Source: Escherichia coli
Lineage (GTDB): Bacteria > Pseudomonadota > Gammaproteobacteria > Enterobacterales > Enterobacteriaceae
Length of the DNA stretch: 64,000 bases
Assembly (NCBI RefSeq): GCF_011045215.1
Contig: NZ_CP049201.1
Reading direction: 5' to 3' (one strand)
Shown one piece after another: positions 3,035 through 64,000 of the stretch. The notes under the pieces were generated by a model that ran no database searches, was not told where the DNA came from, and saw only the letters and a list, made by a program, of their open reading frames with translations. How positions within the stretch are numbered: position 1 is the stretch's first letter; each line of letters opens with the position of its first letter. Position numbers and translations under genes: made by a program.

Positions 3035-3550
3035 TTAGCGATTCTCGATGGACTGACGGAGCGTACCCGCCGTGGCATGAACGCTACCGCCTAAGTAACG
3101 CACATCGTCGATGACCCAACACTGGCCTTCCTGAATCATTAACACTTCATCCTGCCAACCCTGGTCACCCTGTTTGAGATCCACGCGCAATGGAATGTTA
3201 CGGGCATCACGATTAGGGATAGTCGATGCACTGGCAACGTGGGCGCTATCTGGCAAGGTGGTTCGACTGGAGAATGGATCGTTGGTCAGTAGTTCCCGAT
3301 GGTTATTATCCCGGGAGGCATCGCTAAGCAGTGTCGCCAGTTTGTCGCTCAGATAAGGGCGCAAGGCGGTGATGTCGTTGCTGCGGTGCAAAATGCGGTA
3401 GTCATAAAATTGCTGGGCCACGTTATCCGGGCCTCCTTCAACGCAATGACCACTGCGTGTGCCGTTATCTTTATAAGCTGGAGTGACTGTGGTGCAGGCA
3501 CTGAGGAGCAGTGCGCAGGGGATAAGCATTGTCAATTTGCTGTAGCGCAT
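3035..3550 (-). CDS. ybjP: Lipoprotein YbjP
   Basis: 171-aa ORF with lipobox (LLLSAC) signal; synteny. Confidence 0.8.
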   Translation of the reverse strand: MRYSKLTMLIPCALLLSACTTVTPAYKDNGTRSGHCVEGGPDNVAQQFYDYRILHRSNDITALRPYLSDKLATLLSDASRDNNHRELLTNDPFSSRTTLPDSAHVASASTIPNRDARNIPLRVDLKQGDQGWQDEVLMIQEGQCWVIDDVRYLGGSVHATAGTLRQSIENR

Positions 3551-54852: not shown

Positions 54853-56355
54853 TCACCCGGAGAAGGTAAATCCCTCAAGGGGCAGCAACTCTGCCAGTCG
54901 CTCCTCTGGCCATTCCGGCAGACGCGCCAGGACGTCTGTCAGCCAGGCATGTGGCTCCAGACCATTACGTTTTGCCGTTTCCAGAAGGCTCATTATCTGT
55001 GCCGCGCGGTTTCCGGCCATCAGTGAACCGGCGAACAACCAGGCCTTTCGTCCCATAACGACCGGGCGGATAGCACGCTCGCAGATATTGTTGTCCAGGG
55101 GCACGGCTCCGTCACCCAGGAAGCAGCTCAGTTCATCGCGCCGGTTCAGGATATAATTAATCGCTTTGTTTAGTGGTCCGTCGGGCGGACAGCACGGCTC
55201 CTGCTCTTCAAGCCAGGCAAACAGGTCATTCACTATCGGCCGGGAATACCGTTGTCGCCATTGCCGTATTTTTTCCACAGGACGTTCACGGATGAACTTC
55301 TCAATGCGATAAAGACCCGCGATTTTTCTCAGCGCCATGGCTGCACGGGGCTCCCTGCTGGCCTTATACAGACTGGCGAAGCCGCGTCTTGCGTGGCTCC
55401 AGCAACAGGCAGATGTAATACCGGGGTCATTATCCGCCAGAGATTTGTACACGCTGTATCCGTCACTCACCAGCGTGCCACCACGCCAGCCCTGCAGCCA
55501 GGCCTCAGGATATCTGAGGGCCCGTCCGGTCTGCGAGTCAAAACAGACGACCGGCGGGCCGCTTCTTTCTCCGCTGACGTAAGCCCACAGCCAGCCGGAG
55601 CAGGATTTACCGCCTTTCCGGGTATCAAGGAGCCTCAGGGACGTTTCATCTGCATGAATAACATCCCGTGTCAGAAGCTCGTGGCGTAACAATTTTGCCA
55701 GCGGGGCCAGTGCAGCGCCAGCAACACCGACCATATCCGCCATTGTACTGACGGGGAGCTCCACACCCATTCGGGAGAAAATGTGCTGCTGGCGATACAG
55801 GGGCAGATGGTCGGTATATTTGCTGATGACAACCTGTGCGATGACCGATGGCTCAACAGCACTTTTCGGAAGGATATGTGCCGGCATTTTTCCGCTGAAC
55901 ACTTTCTCACAGCAGGGACAGCTGTACTGCGGGCGGATATAGCGGTGGACCACAACCTGTGCGGGGATATATTCCAGCTTCTCGCTGACTTCATCGCGAA
56001 TGAAGTGCAGGGGGGCATCACAGTCAGGACAACGTTCCTCAGCTGGCGGGATAACCTTTTCAGCACGGGGAAGATGTGAAGGCAAGGGCTTACGAACAGG
56101 ACGTGTTGTTTTTTCTTCGTCCCCGGTCTGAGGAAGCAGTTTGTCCAGACGCGCCGAGATTTCTGCGATATCCGCGTCAACATCCTCTTCGAACAGGGAA
56201 CGCTGCATCCCGGCCAGCGATTCGCATTTTTTACCAAAACGCTGCTGGCGTGCGAGCTTCATCTGCTCTTCCAGGATGCGGATACGGTTCTGAAGTTCTG
56301 CAATATTCCGGTCTTTTTCCAGCACCATATTTGCAAGGTTCTGACTCTCAGCCAT
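54853..56355 (-). CDS. IS66-family transposase TnpC
   Basis: 500-aa ORF; N-terminal leucine-zipper-like coiled coil, Cys-rich zinc-finger region (CPDCDAPL...CPCCE), DDE-type core. Confidence 0.8.
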   Translation of the reverse strand: MAESQNLANMVLEKDRNIAELQNRIRILEEQMKLARQQRFGKKCESLAGMQRSLFEEDVDADIAEISARLDKLLPQTGDEEKTTRPVRKPLPSHLPRAEKVIPPAEERCPDCDAPLHFIRDEVSEKLEYIPAQVVVHRYIRPQYSCPCCEKVFSGKMPAHILPKSAVEPSVIAQVVISKYTDHLPLYRQQHIFSRMGVELPVSTMADMVGVAGAALAPLAKLLRHELLTRDVIHADETSLRLLDTRKGGKSCSGWLWAYVSGERSGPPVVCFDSQTGRALRYPEAWLQGWRGGTLVSDGYSVYKSLADNDPGITSACCWSHARRGFASLYKASREPRAAMALRKIAGLYRIEKFIRERPVEKIRQWRQRYSRPIVNDLFAWLEEQEPCCPPDGPLNKAINYILNRRDELSCFLGDGAVPLDNNICERAIRPVVMGRKAWLFAGSLMAGNRAAQIMSLLETAKRNGLEPHAWLTDVLARLPEWPEERLAELLPLEGFTFSG

Positions 56356-56474
56356 GGCTTTTGCACCATGGCAATTGCCAGAGCGCGAAGCTGTTCAGGG
56401 TCACTGGTGGTACTGAGAAGCGAGATATCCATGCGGTGGATTATATGACATCACGCATGGATATTCATTATATT

Positions 56475-56876
56475 TCATTGAGTTATTGCGTTGCTCTGAG
56501 CATCTTCGGGTTCTTCCTGGTATACCCATTTTGCCAGGTCATGCCCTTTCACCTGTTGCCAGTCAACCCCACAGACCAGCCAGTGAAACTCATCCTGTGT
56601 GAGATGCCATGTGGCATCACCTTTCCGGGGCCAGCGGAAGCTTCCCCGGTGCAGTCGTCGGGTACACAGCCATACGCCATGTTTGTCCCACCGGAGAACT
56701 TTTATGCGGGAGCGGACTTTATTGGTGAAGACAAAAGCAGCACCGTCATGCCATGCAGCGTTAAGTTCGTTCTGGACGTACTGTGTCAGTGTGTCGATAC
56801 CCCGGCGCATATCGACGGGTTTTACGACCAGGAATACGTTATCAGGCGTCAGCATGGCGAAGAGCCCGGAAAACAT
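56475..56876 (-). CDS. IS66-family accessory protein TnpB (Orf2)
   Basis: 133-aa ORF (MLTPDNVFLVVKPVDMRRG...) between tnpA and tnpC. Confidence 0.7.
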   Translation of the reverse strand: MFSGLFAMLTPDNVFLVVKPVDMRRGIDTLTQYVQNELNAAWHDGAAFVFTNKVRSRIKVLRWDKHGVWLCTRRLHRGSFRWPRKGDATWHLTQDEFHWLVCGVDWQQVKGHDLAKWVYQEEPEDAQSNAITQ

Positions 56877-57171
56877 CGGTTAACTGAGAAGGCTGGCAGC
56901 ACATCCGGATACCTCCGGGAAGGAAAAGTGTGACAGGCTCATCCGACAATGGTCTGCCATCAGCCATACCGGGAGCGCCAGACACTGAAACTGGAATAAT
57001 TTCAGGTGCTCTGGCTCGTTTTTCGGCTTTTGCAACATCCTGCGGCCACTGGCGCAGGGATTTAAACGGAATGTCGTAAAGTTCACAGTACTGTTCACGG
57101 GTAAGGCCGCTTGCGCGCCATGCGGCAACGTGATGTTTTTTCTGATCAAGCGTCCATCGTATCCTGGGCAT
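56842..57171 (-). CDS. IS66-family accessory protein TnpA (Orf1)
   Basis: 109-aa ORF with HTH-like N-terminus, overlapping the tnpB start. Confidence 0.65.
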   Translation of the reverse strand: MPRIRWTLDQKKHHVAAWRASGLTREQYCELYDIPFKSLRQWPQDVAKAEKRARAPEIIPVSVSGAPGMADGRPLSDEPVTLFLPGGIRMCCQPSQLTDVFRALRHADA

Positions 57172-57288: not shown

Positions 57289-57771
57289 ATGAATAAATAC
57301 TTAATTATTTTATTTTTTATTGCTGACACTTCTAACGCTTCAGAAGCTATATCAAATAAGTACACAATAGATTCAGACAGTCAGTTAATATTATCGAATG
57401 GAAATATTAAGGCTGTTGGCAATGTACACGCTGTAAGCGGGGACATGACTATTGATGCAGATGAAGCTATTTATCATCGTGAAACCCCTGATAACACCTA
57501 TATAACTGCCACAGGGGATCCAATAAAATACAATGGGATAACAGAAGATGGCAAGCCGTTTTCAGGAAACTCGAAAAAGCTTAAATATACTCCCAAAACA
57601 GGAGAGGTGATCCTGACAGACGAAGCTTTTGTCCAACAGAGTGGAAATTCTCTGTCGGCCGAAGTAATAACATATAACACCATCACAAGAAAAATGACAG
57701 CCTCAGCAACTCCCGGTAAAAGAGTAAGGAGTGTGATTTATCCTGACAATATATCCCAGAATGAAAAATAA
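57289..57771 (+). CDS. Secreted LptA/OstA-N-like domain protein
   Basis: Signal peptide MNKYLIILFFIADTSNASEA, then repetitive beta-strand pattern resembling the LptA fold; AT-rich. Confidence 0.45.
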   Translation: MNKYLIILFFIADTSNASEAISNKYTIDSDSQLILSNGNIKAVGNVHAVSGDMTIDADEAIYHRETPDNTYITATGDPIKYNGITEDGKPFSGNSKKLKYTPKTGEVILTDEAFVQQSGNSLSAEVITYNTITRKMTASATPGKRVRSVIYPDNISQNEK

Positions 57772-58052: not shown

Positions 58053-58699
58053 ATGTGTACTATCTTTATGTTACTGATGATGCAACAACATAAATTCGTT
58101 TTTCTTCTCACAGCATTGTTAAGCACCTTCTGCCTCAATTTGTTTCCTGTGGCAGAAACAGGAAATAGCATTACTGTATTGTTACAGATTGCTGCTGATG
58201 TCAATTTATTGTATCGCCGCTGGCAGATGACAGGCCTGAGCATACTGCGGATAATTTTATTACTGCGCAGTGGTTATACAACTCAGCCCTCACAGTACTA
58301 TTATATTACAGTGCTTATCTGTTATTCTCTATTCTTCAGTCAGTTATTGTCTTCCGGCAGGTTGTTTTCTCCTCTGGCATTAATACTGAAACTGTATGCG
58401 CAGCCCTGTGCGGATTTTTACTCATCGGATATATGGGATTCTTTCTATTTGCAACACTGGAGAATCATACGTCGGGCTCTTTTCGTGGTCTTCCCAAAGA
58501 AGGGTTATTGATGATGAAGGGATTATTTTATTACTCTGTTATCAGTATACTGACTGTAGGATATGGTGACATAGTTGCCGTCATCTGGCCAATCCGTAAT
58601 GCAACCATTCTGGTTATATTACTTGACTGCGTCTATTCTCTGGTATTTATTGCACGTATTGTTGGTAGTTTTTCCGCACAAAAAAACGAACAAACGTAA
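58053..58699 (+). pseudogene. Potassium-channel-like gene with TVGYGD selectivity-filter signature, apparently frameshifted
   Basis: 58433-58699 frame encodes ...YYSVISILTVGYGDIVAVIWP... plus a following TM helix; upstream TM helices are in the same frame but without a start codon, while the ATG ORF at 58053 is in another frame. Confidence 0.45.
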
Positions 58700-59249: not shown

Positions 59250-59779
59250 TATAGCTTAGCCTCCGGCACAATAAGTCTATCATCGCCTGAGCCATCACCC
59301 GTGACGTAAGCGCGAAAAAAGTCAGCAGTATGACAATGACTCATGCAAAGATACACTAAAAAAAGCCGCTACCAACAGCCAATAACAGCACCAGACTTGT
59401 CGTCATCAGAAAATAAACATAATCACATAACCTTTTATTAATATAACAATCAATACGATAATGGCAACAGGCGACCAGCATACTGTATTTCCGCCGGAAT
59501 AATCAACAGTAAAAAAACGCACCTGTCCTTGACCCACGATATTCAGACAGTCGTTGTATCTTAAGTTGATGTTACCCGCTGACGTCGATATTCCCTTGGT
59601 GAGAGATAACCTAACGCACTATGCGGATGGTTTTCATTGTAATACTCGATTGCCACTGCAAGGTTATGCAATGCCGTTCTTGCGTATTCCGCTCTATTCG
59701 ATCACGGATTTGCATCGAAGTCCGATCAGCGATTCGCATACTTTCGATCAACCGGGAACTTAACTTTTTCTACCGCTTT

Positions 59780-60535
59780 TTAACTCGTTTTTTCGATGCT
59801 TTCCACTACCGGGGGGTTTTTCCTCAGGGACTCTCCCTGAAGGACCAGTCTGTGTGAGTTATGTACCAGTCTGTCCAGGATGGCATCTGCTGTTGTTGGG
59901 TTCTCCATCAGACCATGCCATTTATCTACCGGGAACTGGCTTACCACTATCGTGCTGCTTTGACCGTAACGATCTTCTATGAGCTCCAGAAGGTCATTAC
60001 ACTGGGCGTTACTTAACTGTTCCAGCCCCAGATCGTCCAGGATTAGAAGCTGTATTTTTTGCAACTGTTTCAGATATTTCAGCCAGCTGCCATCAACACG
60101 TCCCTGAGTCAGTTCTTCCAGTAATCGCCCGGTTCTACAGTACCGGACGCTGTGTTTCTGTCTACATGCCTGTTCGCCCAACGCATTGGCTATCCAGCTT
60201 TTGCCGCATCCTGTCGGACCGGTTATCAGCAGGTTTTTCCTGTGGATTATGTAGTGACCGTTCAGCAGCTCCCTCATCTGTTCAGCCCGCAGACCTCTTG
60301 AGGCCGGATAGCGCAGCCCTTCCGGTGTTGCCTGGTATTTCAGACCGGCATTTTTTCTCAACCGTGCCACACGATTGGTTTCTCTGCTCAGAAGCTCGTC
60401 ATCAACCAGCTGCGTCAGCCTTTCCTCGAACGACAGTTCGTCGTAAGTCTGAGGCGTTTCCCGCTGCCGTATCAGGCTCCCGGCCATCGCCGGGAGTTTC
60501 AGTTGGGTCAGTTTGTTTAACAGATTATCACTCAT
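59780..60535 (-). CDS. istB: IS21-family helper ATPase IstB
   Basis: Walker A GPTGCGKSWIANALG and Walker B LLILDDLG; start chosen at MSDNLLNKLTQL (251 aa). Confidence 0.8.
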   Translation of the reverse strand: MSDNLLNKLTQLKLPAMAGSLIRQRETPQTYDELSFEERLTQLVDDELLSRETNRVARLRKNAGLKYQATPEGLRYPASRGLRAEQMRELLNGHYIIHRKNLLITGPTGCGKSWIANALGEQACRQKHSVRYCRTGRLLEELTQGRVDGSWLKYLKQLQKIQLLILDDLGLEQLSNAQCNDLLELIEDRYGQSSTIVVSQFPVDKWHGLMENPTTADAILDRLVHNSHRLVLQGESLRKNPPVVESIEKTS

Positions 60536-60551
60536 TCGGTTGTTCCTTCTG

Positions 60552-62087
60552 TCAGTGGTAGTAGCCAGGACCACGCAGGTTTTCATGCTCTGAAGCATAT
60601 GCCGGATGTTGTTCGCCCTGGCGGGATAACGGAAGCTCAACGTTATCCCGATGATGACGCAGCAGATTGTCGATAAAGCGTCTGTCCGGGGCGTTATAGT
60701 GCAGGGCAACGTAACAGGCCTTTTCCAGCCGTTCCGGGCCGTATTTTTTCTGAAGTGCCAGCAGACCCAGGACTGCACGGTAAGCCAGCTCCGGATGGGG
60801 TTTGGCTTTCAGCATGGATTCAACCACCCGGCCTGTGGACGGACCTGTACGGTTTCCCTGCTCGATAAGGCGTTCCGGTGTCCATGTCCCATGCCGCCGG
60901 TGGCGTTCTGGCATGTGAAGCGGATTGGTTGTGTGTTTATATTCATGTGTGCTGCGCGGATGTTGCGCCACACACTGCCCCTTGTGCCAGAGTTGTACCA
61001 CCGACTGCCCCGCCTTCAGTGACAGACGCTGACCGACCAGTTCGTGTGGAACGGAGTACCAGTGACGGGCATATTCAACGTGATAGTCAGGGCCAACCTT
61101 CACGGCTTTGTATTCCGTGTATTCATAAGGTGCCAGAGGCAGCGGAGAGAGTGCTGGCGCATCCAGTATGCGGAAGCGTTCTGCACGGGTTTGATTGCCG
61201 TACCCCTTCATTGGCCGGTTATTCATGTCTGTCAGTAACTCCCGAAGGCGCGCATTCAGCGCCCTGAGCGTGTGGAAGGTTTCATTACGGATGCGGGCAA
61301 GAAGCCATCGTTCGACGATGAGGACGCCGTTTTCTGCTTTTGGTTTATCTTTAGGTTTGCGTGGTCGGGCCGGGATAATAACCGTGCCATAGTGCTCAGC
61401 CAGCGCCTGATAACTGTCGTTGATGACAGGCTCATAGCGATCGGCTTTTTTCACTGCGCTTCTGAGGTTATCGGGGATGAGCAGCTTCGGTACGCCGCCC
61501 AGGAAGGTCAGGCAACGGCTGTGGGCATTTAACCATGACATCATGTCCTGACCTTCGCACGCTTCAACATAGGTATAGTTGGACGCCCCCATTACAGCCA
61601 CGAAGATTGCCACGCGGCGTATCTCTCCGGTGTCCGGATTAATAACAGGGACCGTAGGACCACAGAAGTCGATAAAGAGCTTTTCGCCAGCACGATGCTC
61701 CTGTCGCATGGAGAGGCGTCGCGTTTTTTTCCACTTCCGGTAGCAACGGCAGAAGTGTGAGTATCCCATCGCTTTGTCACCCGCCTGTGCCTTGTATTCC
61801 ATCCACAACAGTTGGCGCGTCACGCCAGGTTTTCTCATTTCCGTATCGAAGTACAGCATGTCAGGCATAACAAGCTCCGACGCAGAGGTGTCTTTGGGCG
61901 GGTAAATGAGTTTCTCCAGCGTGTCATGGGATATATCAGCAGGTAATGGCCATGACAGAGAAGAGGCTTTGAAGCGTGCAAGAACCTCAAAAACGGTTGA
62001 GGCGCTGATGTGTAATGTCAGCCCGATACAACGGTTAGTCAGCTTCTGGTCGAACTTGAGCTGAAGGATCTTAAAACAGGTTTCCAT
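60552..62087 (-). CDS. istA: IS21-family transposase IstA
   Basis: DDE integrase-like core upstream of istB; start METCFKIL chosen, the longer ORF start at 62198 lies in flanking IS sequence. Confidence 0.75.
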   Translation of the reverse strand: METCFKILQLKFDQKLTNRCIGLTLHISASTVFEVLARFKASSLSWPLPADISHDTLEKLIYPPKDTSASELVMPDMLYFDTEMRKPGVTRQLLWMEYKAQAGDKAMGYSHFCRCYRKWKKTRRLSMRQEHRAGEKLFIDFCGPTVPVINPDTGEIRRVAIFVAVMGASNYTYVEACEGQDMMSWLNAHSRCLTFLGGVPKLLIPDNLRSAVKKADRYEPVINDSYQALAEHYGTVIIPARPRKPKDKPKAENGVLIVERWLLARIRNETFHTLRALNARLRELLTDMNNRPMKGYGNQTRAERFRILDAPALSPLPLAPYEYTEYKAVKVGPDYHVEYARHWYSVPHELVGQRLSLKAGQSVVQLWHKGQCVAQHPRSTHEYKHTTNPLHMPERHRRHGTWTPERLIEQGNRTGPSTGRVVESMLKAKPHPELAYRAVLGLLALQKKYGPERLEKACYVALHYNAPDRRFIDNLLRHHRDNVELPLSRQGEQHPAYASEHENLRGPGYYH

Positions 62088-62241
62088 AGTGCTCCTGGAT
62101 TTTCTCTTTCTGGACATTGCCGTCTCCATTGGTTTAAACACGGCAATGAAGACTGTGGCGAAAAGAGTTAATTCCCGGAGTGACTGGCAGGATGCCAATC
62201 AATGATCGGAAGCGTGCCAAATCGTGATCGATTGTGATGCC

Positions 62242-63737
62242 AACATACCCTTACCCACAAGTTTTCTGGGCTATTTCTATGGCATTAATTGACAGCATTA
62301 ATTGTGTTAATCCTGACCATATAGTCTTAGGGCCTGGAGGCGAATCATTTTTTCTTGCCAGATATCCTCCTAATCTTGCAAGCATTAAAACCGCCGTTCT
62401 TATATTCGGTATGTTTTCAGGTGGAGGCGTATTCTCTACCAATATCCAGAGATACTCATATTCTTTCTTTTCGAAAATTAAATCACAGGGTTCCTCCGGA
62501 ACCATTTTATACAATGAGCTAAGATAAAGTATTCTCCATGAGATTATAAGGTATAAGGCCAGACAGTTCCTTGTGCGTTCAAATGTCTCAAGTTGTAATT
62601 TCTCAACCTGACATCCGCTTTTTAATACCTTAAAGAAAACTTCAATCTGCCAGCGTAATAAATACCATTGAATAAGCTGTGCGGGTTCCGTCAGCTTTTC
62701 TGGAGGTACACTACTCATTAGCCACCATACTAATGGCTGGACACTTTCTGGAGCATTTATTTCCTTTGCAAGTAATACAGTTACCGTTACCGGAGAACAA
62801 CGTAACTTTCCTCTTCGACCGGTGGGTGGATGTAGCGTCAACCTTGCTAAGCGTAGCTCCTGCTGGACTTTGCGGGAAGGTTGTCCTCGTCCTTCCGGAA
62901 GGGTAAACTCAATTATCTGCTGTGGCAAAATCTGCATCATTTTTTCATTCAGGAGTAATGAGTCTCTTTTTCCTGATGAATTCAGTATAGCCCGGTTAAT
63001 GCTCTTCATTCTTACGAGCCAGTCAGCCTTTATCCCACTTTCATTTTCTGCACTCTCAAAGAGGTCGTAAATATCACCTTCACGGTCTGAAACAGAAATT
63101 ATCTGGGTATCAGGACAGGACCTAGCCAGTTCTGTTGCTTTTTTATATCCTTCTATCCACCGTCCTGTTTCTTTCTCACTGATATGTTTCCTGTGAAGTG
63201 AATCATTAGTTATTTCTTTACGACTTTGTTTCTGAGTTTTGAGTTCTTTTCTGAACCATTGATAATCATCATAAACCCCTAAGCAAATACCTGAATCACT
63301 TATAACCAATTGAGGGTGAATAAACAAATCTCGCTCATTTTCATGTCGTCTGGGACCGACGCCCTGTTTCTTTTTTTGACCAGAATAATTTAGTTCAGTC
63401 GTATCCTGTAAAACCAGAGCCCGTTTAAACTGTTTAGTCCTTTCGATGATATTTTTCTTATGGGGAGCCATGATTTTATCGGCTGAAATTTTATCACTGG
63501 AAAAGCAACGATAAGCAGCTTTTGTCTCACTCCAGGTACGGCAGGATACGGGAATACTTTCCTTTGGTGAACGGCTAAGCACACTGAGAACGTGCTTTAT
63601 TCGCTTTTCGAGCCTGATATCACCAACATTCAGAGATTCCAGCTCCTTAATAACCCAGTTTTCCATAGTTCCTCTAAATTATGGTTAATTTATCAACAGA
63701 ATAACATCACTCGGATTTATGGGTAAGGATATGGAAT
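62242..63737 (-). mobile_element. IS4-family (IS50-like) insertion sequence
   Basis: Terminal inverted repeats CATACCCTTACCCACAAGT (62244-62262) and its imperfect reverse complement at 63715-63733 bracket a single transposase gene. Confidence 0.7.
62251..63666 (-). CDS. IS4-family (IS50/Tn5-like) DDE transposase
   Basis: 471-aa ORF with DREGD motif and YREK-type signature (YLLRWQIEVFFKVLK); several segments align with remembered Tn5 transposase. Confidence 0.8.
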   Translation of the reverse strand: MENWVIKELESLNVGDIRLEKRIKHVLSVLSRSPKESIPVSCRTWSETKAAYRCFSSDKISADKIMAPHKKNIIERTKQFKRALVLQDTTELNYSGQKKKQGVGPRRHENERDLFIHPQLVISDSGICLGVYDDYQWFRKELKTQKQSRKEITNDSLHRKHISEKETGRWIEGYKKATELARSCPDTQIISVSDREGDIYDLFESAENESGIKADWLVRMKSINRAILNSSGKRDSLLLNEKMMQILPQQIIEFTLPEGRGQPSRKVQQELRLARLTLHPPTGRRGKLRCSPVTVTVLLAKEINAPESVQPLVWWLMSSVPPEKLTEPAQLIQWYLLRWQIEVFFKVLKSGCQVEKLQLETFERTRNCLALYLIISWRILYLSSLYKMVPEEPCDLIFEKKEYEYLWILVENTPPPENIPNIRTAVLMLARLGGYLARKNDSPPGPKTIWSGLTQLMLSINAIEIAQKTCG

Positions 63738-63766
63738 GCCAAACCGTGATCGATTCAGATGCCATT

Positions 63767-64000
63767 TTGCAGTTCTTACATTCGGTTTCGACATGAACGC
63801 GATGTAGTCTTCTTTCATCGTTTTCACGAACCTTTCTGCCATTCCATTGCTCTGAGGGCTACTGACTGCCGCCGTGCAGGGCTCCAGATTCAACTCTCTG
63901 GCGAACTGCCGTGTTTCATGCGCTCTGTACGCTGAACCGTTATCTGTCAGCCACTGGATTGGCCGTTCCGCTCCTTTATCGCCAAAGCGTTTTTCTATCG
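63767..64000 (-). CDS. IS3-family transposase OrfB, C-terminal fragment (continues past window end)
   Basis: Minus-strand translation ...[51 protein letters not shown]... matches the IS3/IS2 integrase core. Confidence 0.6.

Follow-up and report, generated by a model that had tools for sequence, protein, structure and literature searches.

At one end of a 64,000-nt stretch of Escherichia coli DNA (NZ_CP049201.1; hereafter the window), IS21-family istA and istB, a Tn5/IS50-like transposase gene and a fragment of an IS3-family orfB are all found within positions 59540–64000 using Pfam and NCBIfam models, which raises the question of how these elements are arranged. The earlier note had named the three families correctly but described them as packed back to back, whereas we find them nested. 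The region is very probably a three-level nest, in which an IS3-family element contains ISSso4, which itself contains an ISEc13-like IS (Table 1), and should be annotated as such. The overall finding is ordinary, a nest of known IS types with no new repeat-bounded structure, and the window itself, which carries IS debris at an island edge, is of little importance; the target preference of the Tn5-like element is the sole mildly novel point. Element names were taken from PGAP and depositor annotation and not from ISfinder reference sequences.

Table 1. Coordinates of the nested elements and their parts in the window.
Feature	Position	Strand	Details
IS3-family (IS2-group) element, terminal end and orfB C-terminus	59524–59680	−	Multi-copy homology, C-terminal peptide matches
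Coding part of orfB C-terminus	59561–59680	−	Stop codon 59561–59563 included
Target-site duplication GTTCT of ISSso4, left copy	59676–59680		Junctions and empty site L002 8630–8690, ...ATGCCGTTCTTACATTCGG...
ISSso4 (IS21 family) with Tn5-like IS inside	59681–63771	−	4091 bp; termini TGCG...TTTTGCA
istB-proximal terminal inverted repeat of ISSso4	59681–59745	+	Subrepeats 59699–59714 and 59723–59738; motif scan; inverted-repeat pairs I4 and I10 with other end
istB, AAA+ helper ATPase	59780–60535	−	251 aa, intact; PF01695 6e-60; NF038214 2.6e-76, above cut-off
istA, IS21-family transposase	60552–62087	−	511 aa, intact; NF033546 1.8e-85, above cut-off; rve and Mu-transpos_C_2
istA-proximal terminal repeat of ISSso4, inner part	62193–62243	+	r1 62193–62214; r2 62215–62237 (inner repeat copy); TGCCAA of next unit 62238–62243
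Left 9-bp flank of Tn5-like IS, TGATGCCAA	62235–62243		Hybrid duplication, 7/9 identical to right flank
Tn5/IS50-like IS (ISEc13-like)	62244–63733	−	1490 bp; boundaries from 100% identical copies elsewhere with 9-bp duplications
Terminal inverted repeats of Tn5-like IS	62244–62260 and 63717–63733		17 nt, 88% complementary (pair I9)
Transposase gene of Tn5-like IS	62251–63666	−	471 aa, intact
Right 9-bp flank of Tn5-like IS, GAATGCCAA	63734–63742		Related copies
Outermost subrepeat r5 (outer repeat copy) and true terminus of ISSso4	63737–63771	+	r5 63737–63759; terminus TGCCATTTTGCA 63760–63771
Target-site duplication GTTCT of ISSso4, right copy	63772–63776		Junction
IS3-family orfB, upstream part	63772–64000	−	Runs past window end; joined to 59680 in L002 empty site

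The middle element shares 96–99% nucleotide identity with elements labelled ISSso4 by PGAP (“IS21-like element ISSso4 family”); relatives of its istB are annotated as ISSso4 IstB, and its istA has the length of annotated ISSso4 istA. Consecutive istA and istB genes, 5′-TG...CA-3′ ends with subrepeats and a duplication in the 4–8 bp range all point to the IS21 family. As in known ISSso4, istA and istB form an operon, the termini are TG...CA, the subrepeats are spaced by 23 bp and the duplication is 5 bp long. Homology to ISSso4 in unrelated contexts covers exactly 59681–63771, and an empty site in E. coli 52F4 gives the 5-bp duplication GTTCT; other ISSso4 copies are flanked by duplications of 5–7 bp, plus one ambiguous 4/5-bp case. 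Intact copies measure 2592–2662 bp with the same termini, and the length of the interrupted copy corresponds to the sum 4091 = 2592 + 1490 + 9. In some ISSso4 matches, similarity extends 10–19 bp further into the left flank. We considered a shared IS3 site and rejected it, as the contexts differ and the similarity reflects nothing more than T-rich targets.

We confirmed the 26-bp imperfect direct repeat reported on either side of the Tn5-like IS (62216–62241 and 63738–63763; 23/26 identical), which extends to 25/28 identical positions at 62215–62242 and 63737–63764. A degenerate 28-nt pattern, built from the two copies after they had been seen, has only these two matches in 64 kb and none in 100 shuffles. 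As the earlier note rightly stated, the length and divergence of the repeat are too great for a target-site duplication. Sequence comparison indicates that its two copies are r2 and r5 of the ISSso4 terminal array, made of ∼23-bp TGCCAA...GATCG units and ordered r1-r2-r3-r4-r5-TTTTGCA in uninterrupted copies (L006, L019–L022, L033–L035). In uninterrupted ISSso4, the two repeat copies are separated by 46 bp and no IS intervenes; their distance of 1.5 kb in the window is due to the intervening Tn5-like IS. The segment 63737–63771 is identical to the last 35–38 bp of an uninterrupted ISSso4 (L006) and forms inverted-repeat pair I4 with the opposite end (89% complementary). GATC cores occur at nt 21, 44, 68 and 91 from the tip, and the motif TGCCAAN4TGATCG has five matches in 64 kb versus 0.44 expected, inverted between the ends: one ISSso4 end has three + strand matches and the opposite end two − strand matches.

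When ISSso4 copies are aligned to the window with Megablast, the alignments break off at 62243, as if a complete ISSso4 ended there and the outer copy (63737–63771) were the solo end of a second, different IS21-family element. We consider this highly improbable and rejected it, since the same uninterrupted subject copies read past the stop with r3-r4-r5-TTTTGCA (L006, L019–L022, L033–L035). Moreover, the target duplications of those copies flank the TTTTGCA terminus and not 62243, and at the other end the tip and the conserved core are 27 nt apart, which agrees with the 28 nt of the outer end but not with the 21 nt of the inner one. The alignments stop there only because the query contains the IS, and the real ISSso4 end lies 76 bp beyond the stop that BLAST suggests against an interrupted copy. 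Boundary calling is also affected by the number of subrepeats, which is 3, 5 or 6 in uninterrupted ISSso4 copies. We also considered a 65-bp element made of ISSso4 ends only as an active miniature element; because it is mostly present in a single copy per genome and has no clear duplications, it is more likely a fossil.

That the repeats directly flank the Tn5-like IS in the window could also mean that they are its own termini, an outcome the earlier note had itself raised. The probability of this is close to nil: 100%-identical copies of the IS are bounded by CATACCC.../...GGATATG and lie between other flanks, without the repeats, be it in ISEc12 (L023, L028, L029), in the ato region (L025) or in opposite orientation (L002, L032), and the flanks do not move when the IS is inverted. 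The earlier note itself preferred to read the IS50-like element as lying between two terminal fragments of IS3 type, the repeats being C-terminal OrfB sequence that continues its frame in both copies. The broken orfB frame does run through the outer copy (ORF 63717–63893), which resembles coding sequence there, but this read-through is an artefact of the insertion. The inner copy adjoins the sequence upstream of istA and has no IS3 sequence beside it, both copies are present in uninterrupted ISSso4 ends, and no 26-bp unit is present at the intact IS3-family site of L002. We therefore give this reading virtually no credence.

The outer IS3-family element spans ∼59524 to beyond 64000 and is split in orfB by the insert; multi-copy homology begins at L002 8504–8505, which corresponds to about 59524 in the window. 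Deletion of 59681–63776 restores a clean OrfB C-terminus (...MSKPNVRTA|...), again without the 26-bp unit. The restored C-terminus matches rve_3 (3.3e-16), an IS2 TnpB model (8.5e-45) and an IS3 model (1.3e-25), all partially because the window ends. The orfA–orfB arrangement falls outside the window; L002 carries an uninterrupted relative, whose inverted repeats are 21 nt long and which is annotated as a frameshifted IS3-family transposase. OrfB, with its predicted rve-type DDE integrase core, can be assigned to the IS3 family (IS2 group). ISSso4 has inserted into orfB of an IS2-group element, duplicating GTTCT, and the 1490-bp Tn5-like IS is located inside the istA-proximal terminal inverted repeat of ISSso4. 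The Tn5-like IS may have entered ISSso4 either before or after ISSso4 reached the IS3-family element. IS-dense regions are prone to collapse or mis-joining of IS copies during assembly, a possibility also mentioned in the earlier note. However, the same architecture recurs in many independent complete genomes, its junctions are also reproduced in metagenome contigs, and a coherent duplication is found at every junction of the nest, which makes an artefact very improbable indeed.

The transposase of the inner IS contains Tnp_DNA_bind, DDE_Tnp_1 and Dimer_Tnp_Tn5 domains (PF14706, PF01609 and PF02281, all above cut-offs), scores 1.5e-103 against NF033590 and is a remote match to Tn5 transposase (2e-25, phmmer). 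Alignment to 4dm0_A reveals that the D-D-E and Y-R-E-K residues, aligned with Tn5 D97, D188, E326 and Y319/R322/K333, are all conserved. These features, together with the short inverted repeats and the 9-bp duplication, place the element by homology in the IS50/Tn5 group of the IS4 family. It resembles IS50/Tn5 in having a single transposase with the same three domains, short terminal inverted repeats and, in relatives, 9-bp duplications, and differs in its inverted repeats, which are 17–18 bp long and of different sequence. Within the 90%-identity protein cluster, one protein was named “transposase of ISEc13” by its depositor. If the nest is read correctly, the ISSso4 reference should end in ...GATGCCATTTTGCA with five subrepeats, and ISEc13 should measure ∼1490 bp with CATACCC.../CATATCC... 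ends. A transposase scan of species-representative genomes returned only distant relatives, with 32–61% identity over the best aligned segments (Legionella and metagenome-assembled genomes).

Unlike other ISSso4, the window copy carries a foreign 1490-bp IS 38 bp from its istA-proximal tip and lacks two subrepeats (46 bp). The 9-bp flanks of the IS, TGATGCCAA and GAATGCCAA, are mismatched, with 7/9 positions identical. We dropped a diverged duplication as the explanation because perfect 9-bp duplications were found at both neighbouring sites in related copies, TGATGCCAA at r2|r3 (L031, L032) and GAATGCCAA at r4|r5 (L001, L030); the L028 copy of the IS also has a perfect 9-bp duplication. The mismatch is best explained by loss of 46 bp, that is, two units. 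Judging from these relatives, the IS would have entered a 9-bp target present at every subrepeat boundary, and r3-r4 would then have been lost by homologous recombination between IS copies at two neighbouring sites or, alternatively, by slippage of one 46-bp repeat unit. The 52F4-type and L027 structures would require as a parent an r4|r5 insertion in the opposite orientation, which was not seen intact among the copies examined.

The consequence for ISSso4 can be gauged by analogy with IS5376. IS21-family ends carry direct repeats 23 bp apart; the corresponding subrepeats of IS5376 serve as assembly sites for IstA at the end, and two complete repeats are required by IstA in vitro (PMC10122671). 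The ISSso4 subrepeats are thus probably IstA-binding sites. As only one subrepeat is left at the tip, the interrupted end is probably crippled, the two-repeat requirement being one shown for IS5376, not ISSso4.

A different history is suggested by the window and 52F4 copies, which share hybrid flanks, the 46-bp loss and the identical last 360 bp of ISSso4, and whose two insertion sites are 1.5 kb from each other and have separate duplications. ISSso4 and its inserted IS could have moved into the IS3 element as one unit via the outer terminus, the orientation in 52F4 then resulting from an in-place flip by the Tn5-like transposase. We regard this as unlikely. An end with one subrepeat at its tip should be a poor IstA substrate, by the same analogy, and a mechanism that inverts a cut-and-paste IS at precisely its own position is not known. 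If crossover took place within the inverted repeats, chimeric repeats should result, which are not seen, and crossover at ATCGAT palindromes in the flanks should leave flanks other than those present; excision with subsequent religation was dropped as speculative. Furthermore, independent insertions in both orientations are documented in one genome. Because three different configurations of the IS in ISSso4 coexist in that genome (GCA_014105865.1), we favour hot-spot insertions in both orientations, followed by recombination, over inversion.

Related copies lie repeatedly in IS21-family terminal subrepeats, in both orientations and with perfect 9-bp duplications. All 33 full-length copies among 5426 complete E. 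coli genomes are located in an ISSso4 end. The number of independent events is small, ∼6 of ∼9. Sequence contexts were sampled on a limited scale: of the 364 index blocks in which the transposase protein is listed, 23 were used, giving 23 contigs. The IS occupies ISEc12 in the same register as ISSso4; in both, the duplication stops 5 nt outside the GATC core. In E. marmotae, a 78%-identical relative is inserted in an ISSso4-like end of divergent sequence. Independent insertions recur at the same terminal-repeat position in ISSso4 (r4|r5 and r2|r3), in ISEc12 and in the E. marmotae pair. The association is not exclusive: a copy in the ato region (L025) lacks a duplication, and the flank of a degenerate 74% relative near ompC has no significant IS21 similarity (L017).

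These observations suggest that the IS strongly prefers IS21-family terminal subrepeats in a register-specific manner. We lean towards the view that the ISEc13-like element is a specialised “IS of ISs” that recognises these subrepeats in a fixed register, and not a particular 9-mer. Such recognition would account for both ISSso4 and ISEc12 being targets despite IstA transposases that are only 46% identical. If true, insertion leaves the tip subrepeat detached from the remainder of the end and could disable the host IS. A Tn5-like IS homing to IS21-family subrepeats would then be a natural probe of end recognition and would exemplify one IS limiting another. We found no description of this target preference in the searchable literature, where ISSso4 and ISEc13 receive only incidental mentions.

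Tn5 has only a weak target preference, unlike the ISEc13-like IS, which in the great majority of cases is found in terminal subrepeats of the IS21 family. Insertion is in a single orientation for IS5075 and IS4321 but in both for the ISEc13-like IS, and IS231 reportedly prefers the terminal repeat of Tn4430 (Hallet et al.). The ISEc13-like IS further differs from IS5075 and IS4321 in transposase family and chemistry and in its hosts, which are IS21-family elements where several equivalent subrepeats are targeted. It shares with them a recurrent position in the terminal repeat of another mobile element, a behaviour described for an IS in PMC8269217, citing Partridge and Hall 2003. The likeness to IS231, another IS4-family element associated with the ends of a transposon, is one of description and not of sequence, the IS4 subgroup, host and target element all being different. 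Structural association of IS231 with Tn4430 ends in Bacillus thuringiensis is attributed to Mahillon et al. 1987 in PMC6199540.

Three IS families, namely IS21, Tn5/IS50-like and IS3, are present within 59540–64000 according to Pfam and NCBIfam models, as an earlier note had proposed. Our results indicate that they form a three-level nest in which a Tn5-like IS resides within ISSso4, an IS21-family element that itself interrupts orfB of an IS3-family element; the nesting order, all boundaries and both classes of target duplication were directly observed. The junctions of ISSso4 with the IS3-family element join ...GCCGTTCT to TGCGTATTCC... and ...CCATTTTGCA to GTTCTTACATT..., and the uninterrupted site in the same island of E. 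coli 52F4 (L002) reads ...GCCGTTCTTACATT...; ISSso4 therefore generated a 5-bp duplication, GTTCT. Excision of 59681–63776 gives back an IS3-family OrfB C-terminus, and the lengths add up (4091 = 2592 + 1490 + 9). The interrupted element, a multi-copy IS of ~1335–1350 bp with 21-nt inverted repeats, begins at about 59524 and extends off the window. The earlier note, which placed the IS50-like element between two IS3-type fragments, saw the nest correctly but misinterpreted it. Just upstream, an IS66-family element (tnpC, tnpB and tnpA, − strand) occupies 54853–57171, followed by small AT-rich ORFs including one for an LptA-like protein (57289–57771). A 30-nt similarity (73% identity) between 62072–62101 and 63651–63680, across the start codons of istA and the Tn5-like transposase gene, is probably due to chance.

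Genes of the nest and comparison copies of ISSso4
Feature	Location	Strand	Remarks
istB	59780–60535	−	ORF list; Pfam IstB_IS21; reading frame intact
istA	60552–62087	−	ORF list; NCBIfam IS21 transposase model; reading frame intact
Tn5-like transposase gene (471 aa)	62251–63666	−	Tnp_DNA_bind, DDE_Tnp_1, Dimer_Tnp_Tn5; reading frame intact
IS3-type orfB fragments	both edges of 59540–64000		rve_3, IS2 TnpB model, IS3 model
ISSso4, 3 subrepeats	L022		2592 bp
ISSso4, 5 subrepeats	L019/L020, L006		2638–2639 bp (L019/L020, 2638 bp; L006, 2639 bp)
ISSso4, 6 subrepeats	L021		2662 bp
ISSso4 + inverted Tn5-like IS	L002 3001–7092 (52F4; also C5)		window-equivalent 58113–58118, CAGCAT

The imperfect direct repeat described in the same note does exist, matching at 23 of 26 positions (62216–62241 and 63738–63763) and extending to 25 of 28 at 62215–62242 and 63737–63764. 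A degenerate 28-nt pattern, derived from the two copies after inspecting them, matched only these copies in the 64-kb window and nothing in 100 shuffles. The motif TGCCAAN4TGATCG matched five times in the window versus 0.44 expected by chance; three + strand matches fall in the istA-proximal end of ISSso4 and two − strand matches in the opposite end. In complete E. coli genomes, homology to ISSso4-annotated elements runs from 59681 to 63771, the Tn5-like IS and the outer repeat copy included. Alignments of about 300 ISSso4 copies to the window halt at 62243 because the query is interrupted, and a terminus at this position was rejected since uninterrupted copies go on beyond it, as ...GATGCCAAACTGTGATCGGAGATGGATGCCAAATCATGATCGATTCGAATGCCAAACCGTGATCGATTCAGATGCCATTTTGCA (L006, L019–L022, L033–L035). 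The istA-proximal end therefore comprises an array of direct subrepeats of ~23 bp, r1 to r5, with r5 at the tip, and the two repeat copies are r2 and r5. Target duplications of uninterrupted ISSso4 adjoin a TTTTGCA terminus and measure 5–7 bp, L033 being an ambiguous case (4/5 bp). Subrepeat number at this end is naturally variable (3, 5 or 6). This organization matches the textbook architecture of IS21-family ends, in which terminal direct repeats are spaced 23 bp; for IS5376, two direct repeats are required by IstA in vitro (PMC10122671). Given this biochemistry, the ISSso4 end in the window, where r5 alone remains beside the tip, is probably a poor IstA substrate. A 65-bp ends-only derivative of ISSso4 (3470–3534 in both L004 and L005), a near-perfect palindrome joining the left 30 bp to the right 35 bp, occurs at ≥80% coverage in 840 of 5426 complete E. 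coli genomes, mostly as one copy; no clear target duplication was seen around it.

The Tn5-like IS spans 62244–63733 (1490 bp) and ends in the inverted-repeat pair CATACCCTTACCCACAA and CATATCCTTACCCATAA. Its transposase resembles that of Tn5 (E = 2e-25), with conserved DDE and YREK residues, and its 90%-identity protein cluster contains one member named by its depositor ‘transposase of ISEc13’. Elsewhere, perfect 9-bp duplications flank the Tn5-like IS: GAATGCCAA where it separates r4 from r5 (L001, L030), and TGATGCCAA where it separates r2 from r3, in opposite orientations (L031, L032); L030, L031 and L032 come from a single genome, GCA_014105865.1. In the window, the left flank of the Tn5-like IS is TGATGCCAA and its right flank is GAATGCCAA; r3–r4 (46 bp) are missing. 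A crossover between copies at neighbouring sites would yield both the hybrid flanks and the 46-bp loss. An identical outcome would be expected if a single 46-bp repeat unit had been lost by slippage, and a natural 3-subrepeat ISSso4 exists (L022). We infer that the Tn5-like IS came by hot-spot insertion and that the 46-bp loss is secondary.

Across 5426 complete E. coli genomes, the Tn5-like IS has 33 full-length copies, every one of them inside an ISSso4 end. An identical Tn5-like IS, flanked by the duplication ATAACATCG, is also inserted in ISEc12 at its istA-proximal end (uninterrupted site in L015); the IstA proteins of ISEc12 and ISSso4 share only 46% identity. Within the first 120 nt, both ends (ISSso4, L019; ISEc12, L028/L015) carry GATC cores 21, 44, 67/68 and 90/91 nt from the tip, and the duplication always ends 5 nt outside such a core (ISSso4 nt 30–38 and 77–85; ISEc12 nt 76–84). 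These cores are Dam sites. In E. marmotae plasmid pEM148 (L014 1278–7601), a 78%-identical Tn5-like IS occupies the innermost TGCCAA site in a relative of ISSso4 (~84% identity); this Tn5-like IS is in turn split by ISEc16, with the distal part inverted. The 9-mers alone are insufficient as a target, since the window contains one further copy each of GAATGCCAA and TGATGCCAA, both without an insertion. Exceptions do exist: in L025 the Tn5-like IS lies in the ato region and lacks a duplication, and in L017 a degenerate relative (74%) is located near ompC. With about 6 of about 9 independent insertion events in IS21-family ends, under limited sampling, the preference for such ends appears strong but not absolute.

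The region is an ordinary IS nest, with this target preference as one modestly interesting by-product: ISSso4, ISEc13-type and IS3-family elements are already known, and nested ISs are commonplace. Homing of ISs to the terminal repeats of other mobile elements likewise has precedents: IS5075 and IS4321 target Tn21-family ends, and IS231 is associated with Tn4430 ends. The searchable literature yielded no description of a Tn5-family element that homes to IS21-family subrepeats.

E. coli 52F4 and C5 share the hybrid flanks of the window, with the Tn5-like IS exactly inverted and ISSso4 1.5 kb from the window site, duplicating CAGCAT; the IS3 orfB site occupied in the window is empty in the 52F4 island. 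An in-place flip provided no account of the inversion. Independent insertions in both orientations, combined with recombination, account for this arrangement and likewise for that of L027 (3896–5461), where two inverted 38-bp ISSso4 tips flank the Tn5-like IS, with no duplication outside them. L027 looks like a recombinant between opposite-orientation insertions, and its structure would offer two IS21-type ends to IstA. ISSso4 copies are recombination mosaics: the window and L002 copies show 51 differences, of which 38 fall in 60081–60880 and none in the last 360 bp. In an afa/dra-locus lineage (L003 1691–4345) comprising 29 genomes, among them a strain named ST-131, istA of ISSso4 is truncated from window-equivalent 60744 and annotated within a 2.6-kb gene for an ‘IS66 family transposase’. 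This gene is probably an annotation fusion that spans a rearrangement. In the same lineage, two ORFs make up the split Tn5-like transposase.
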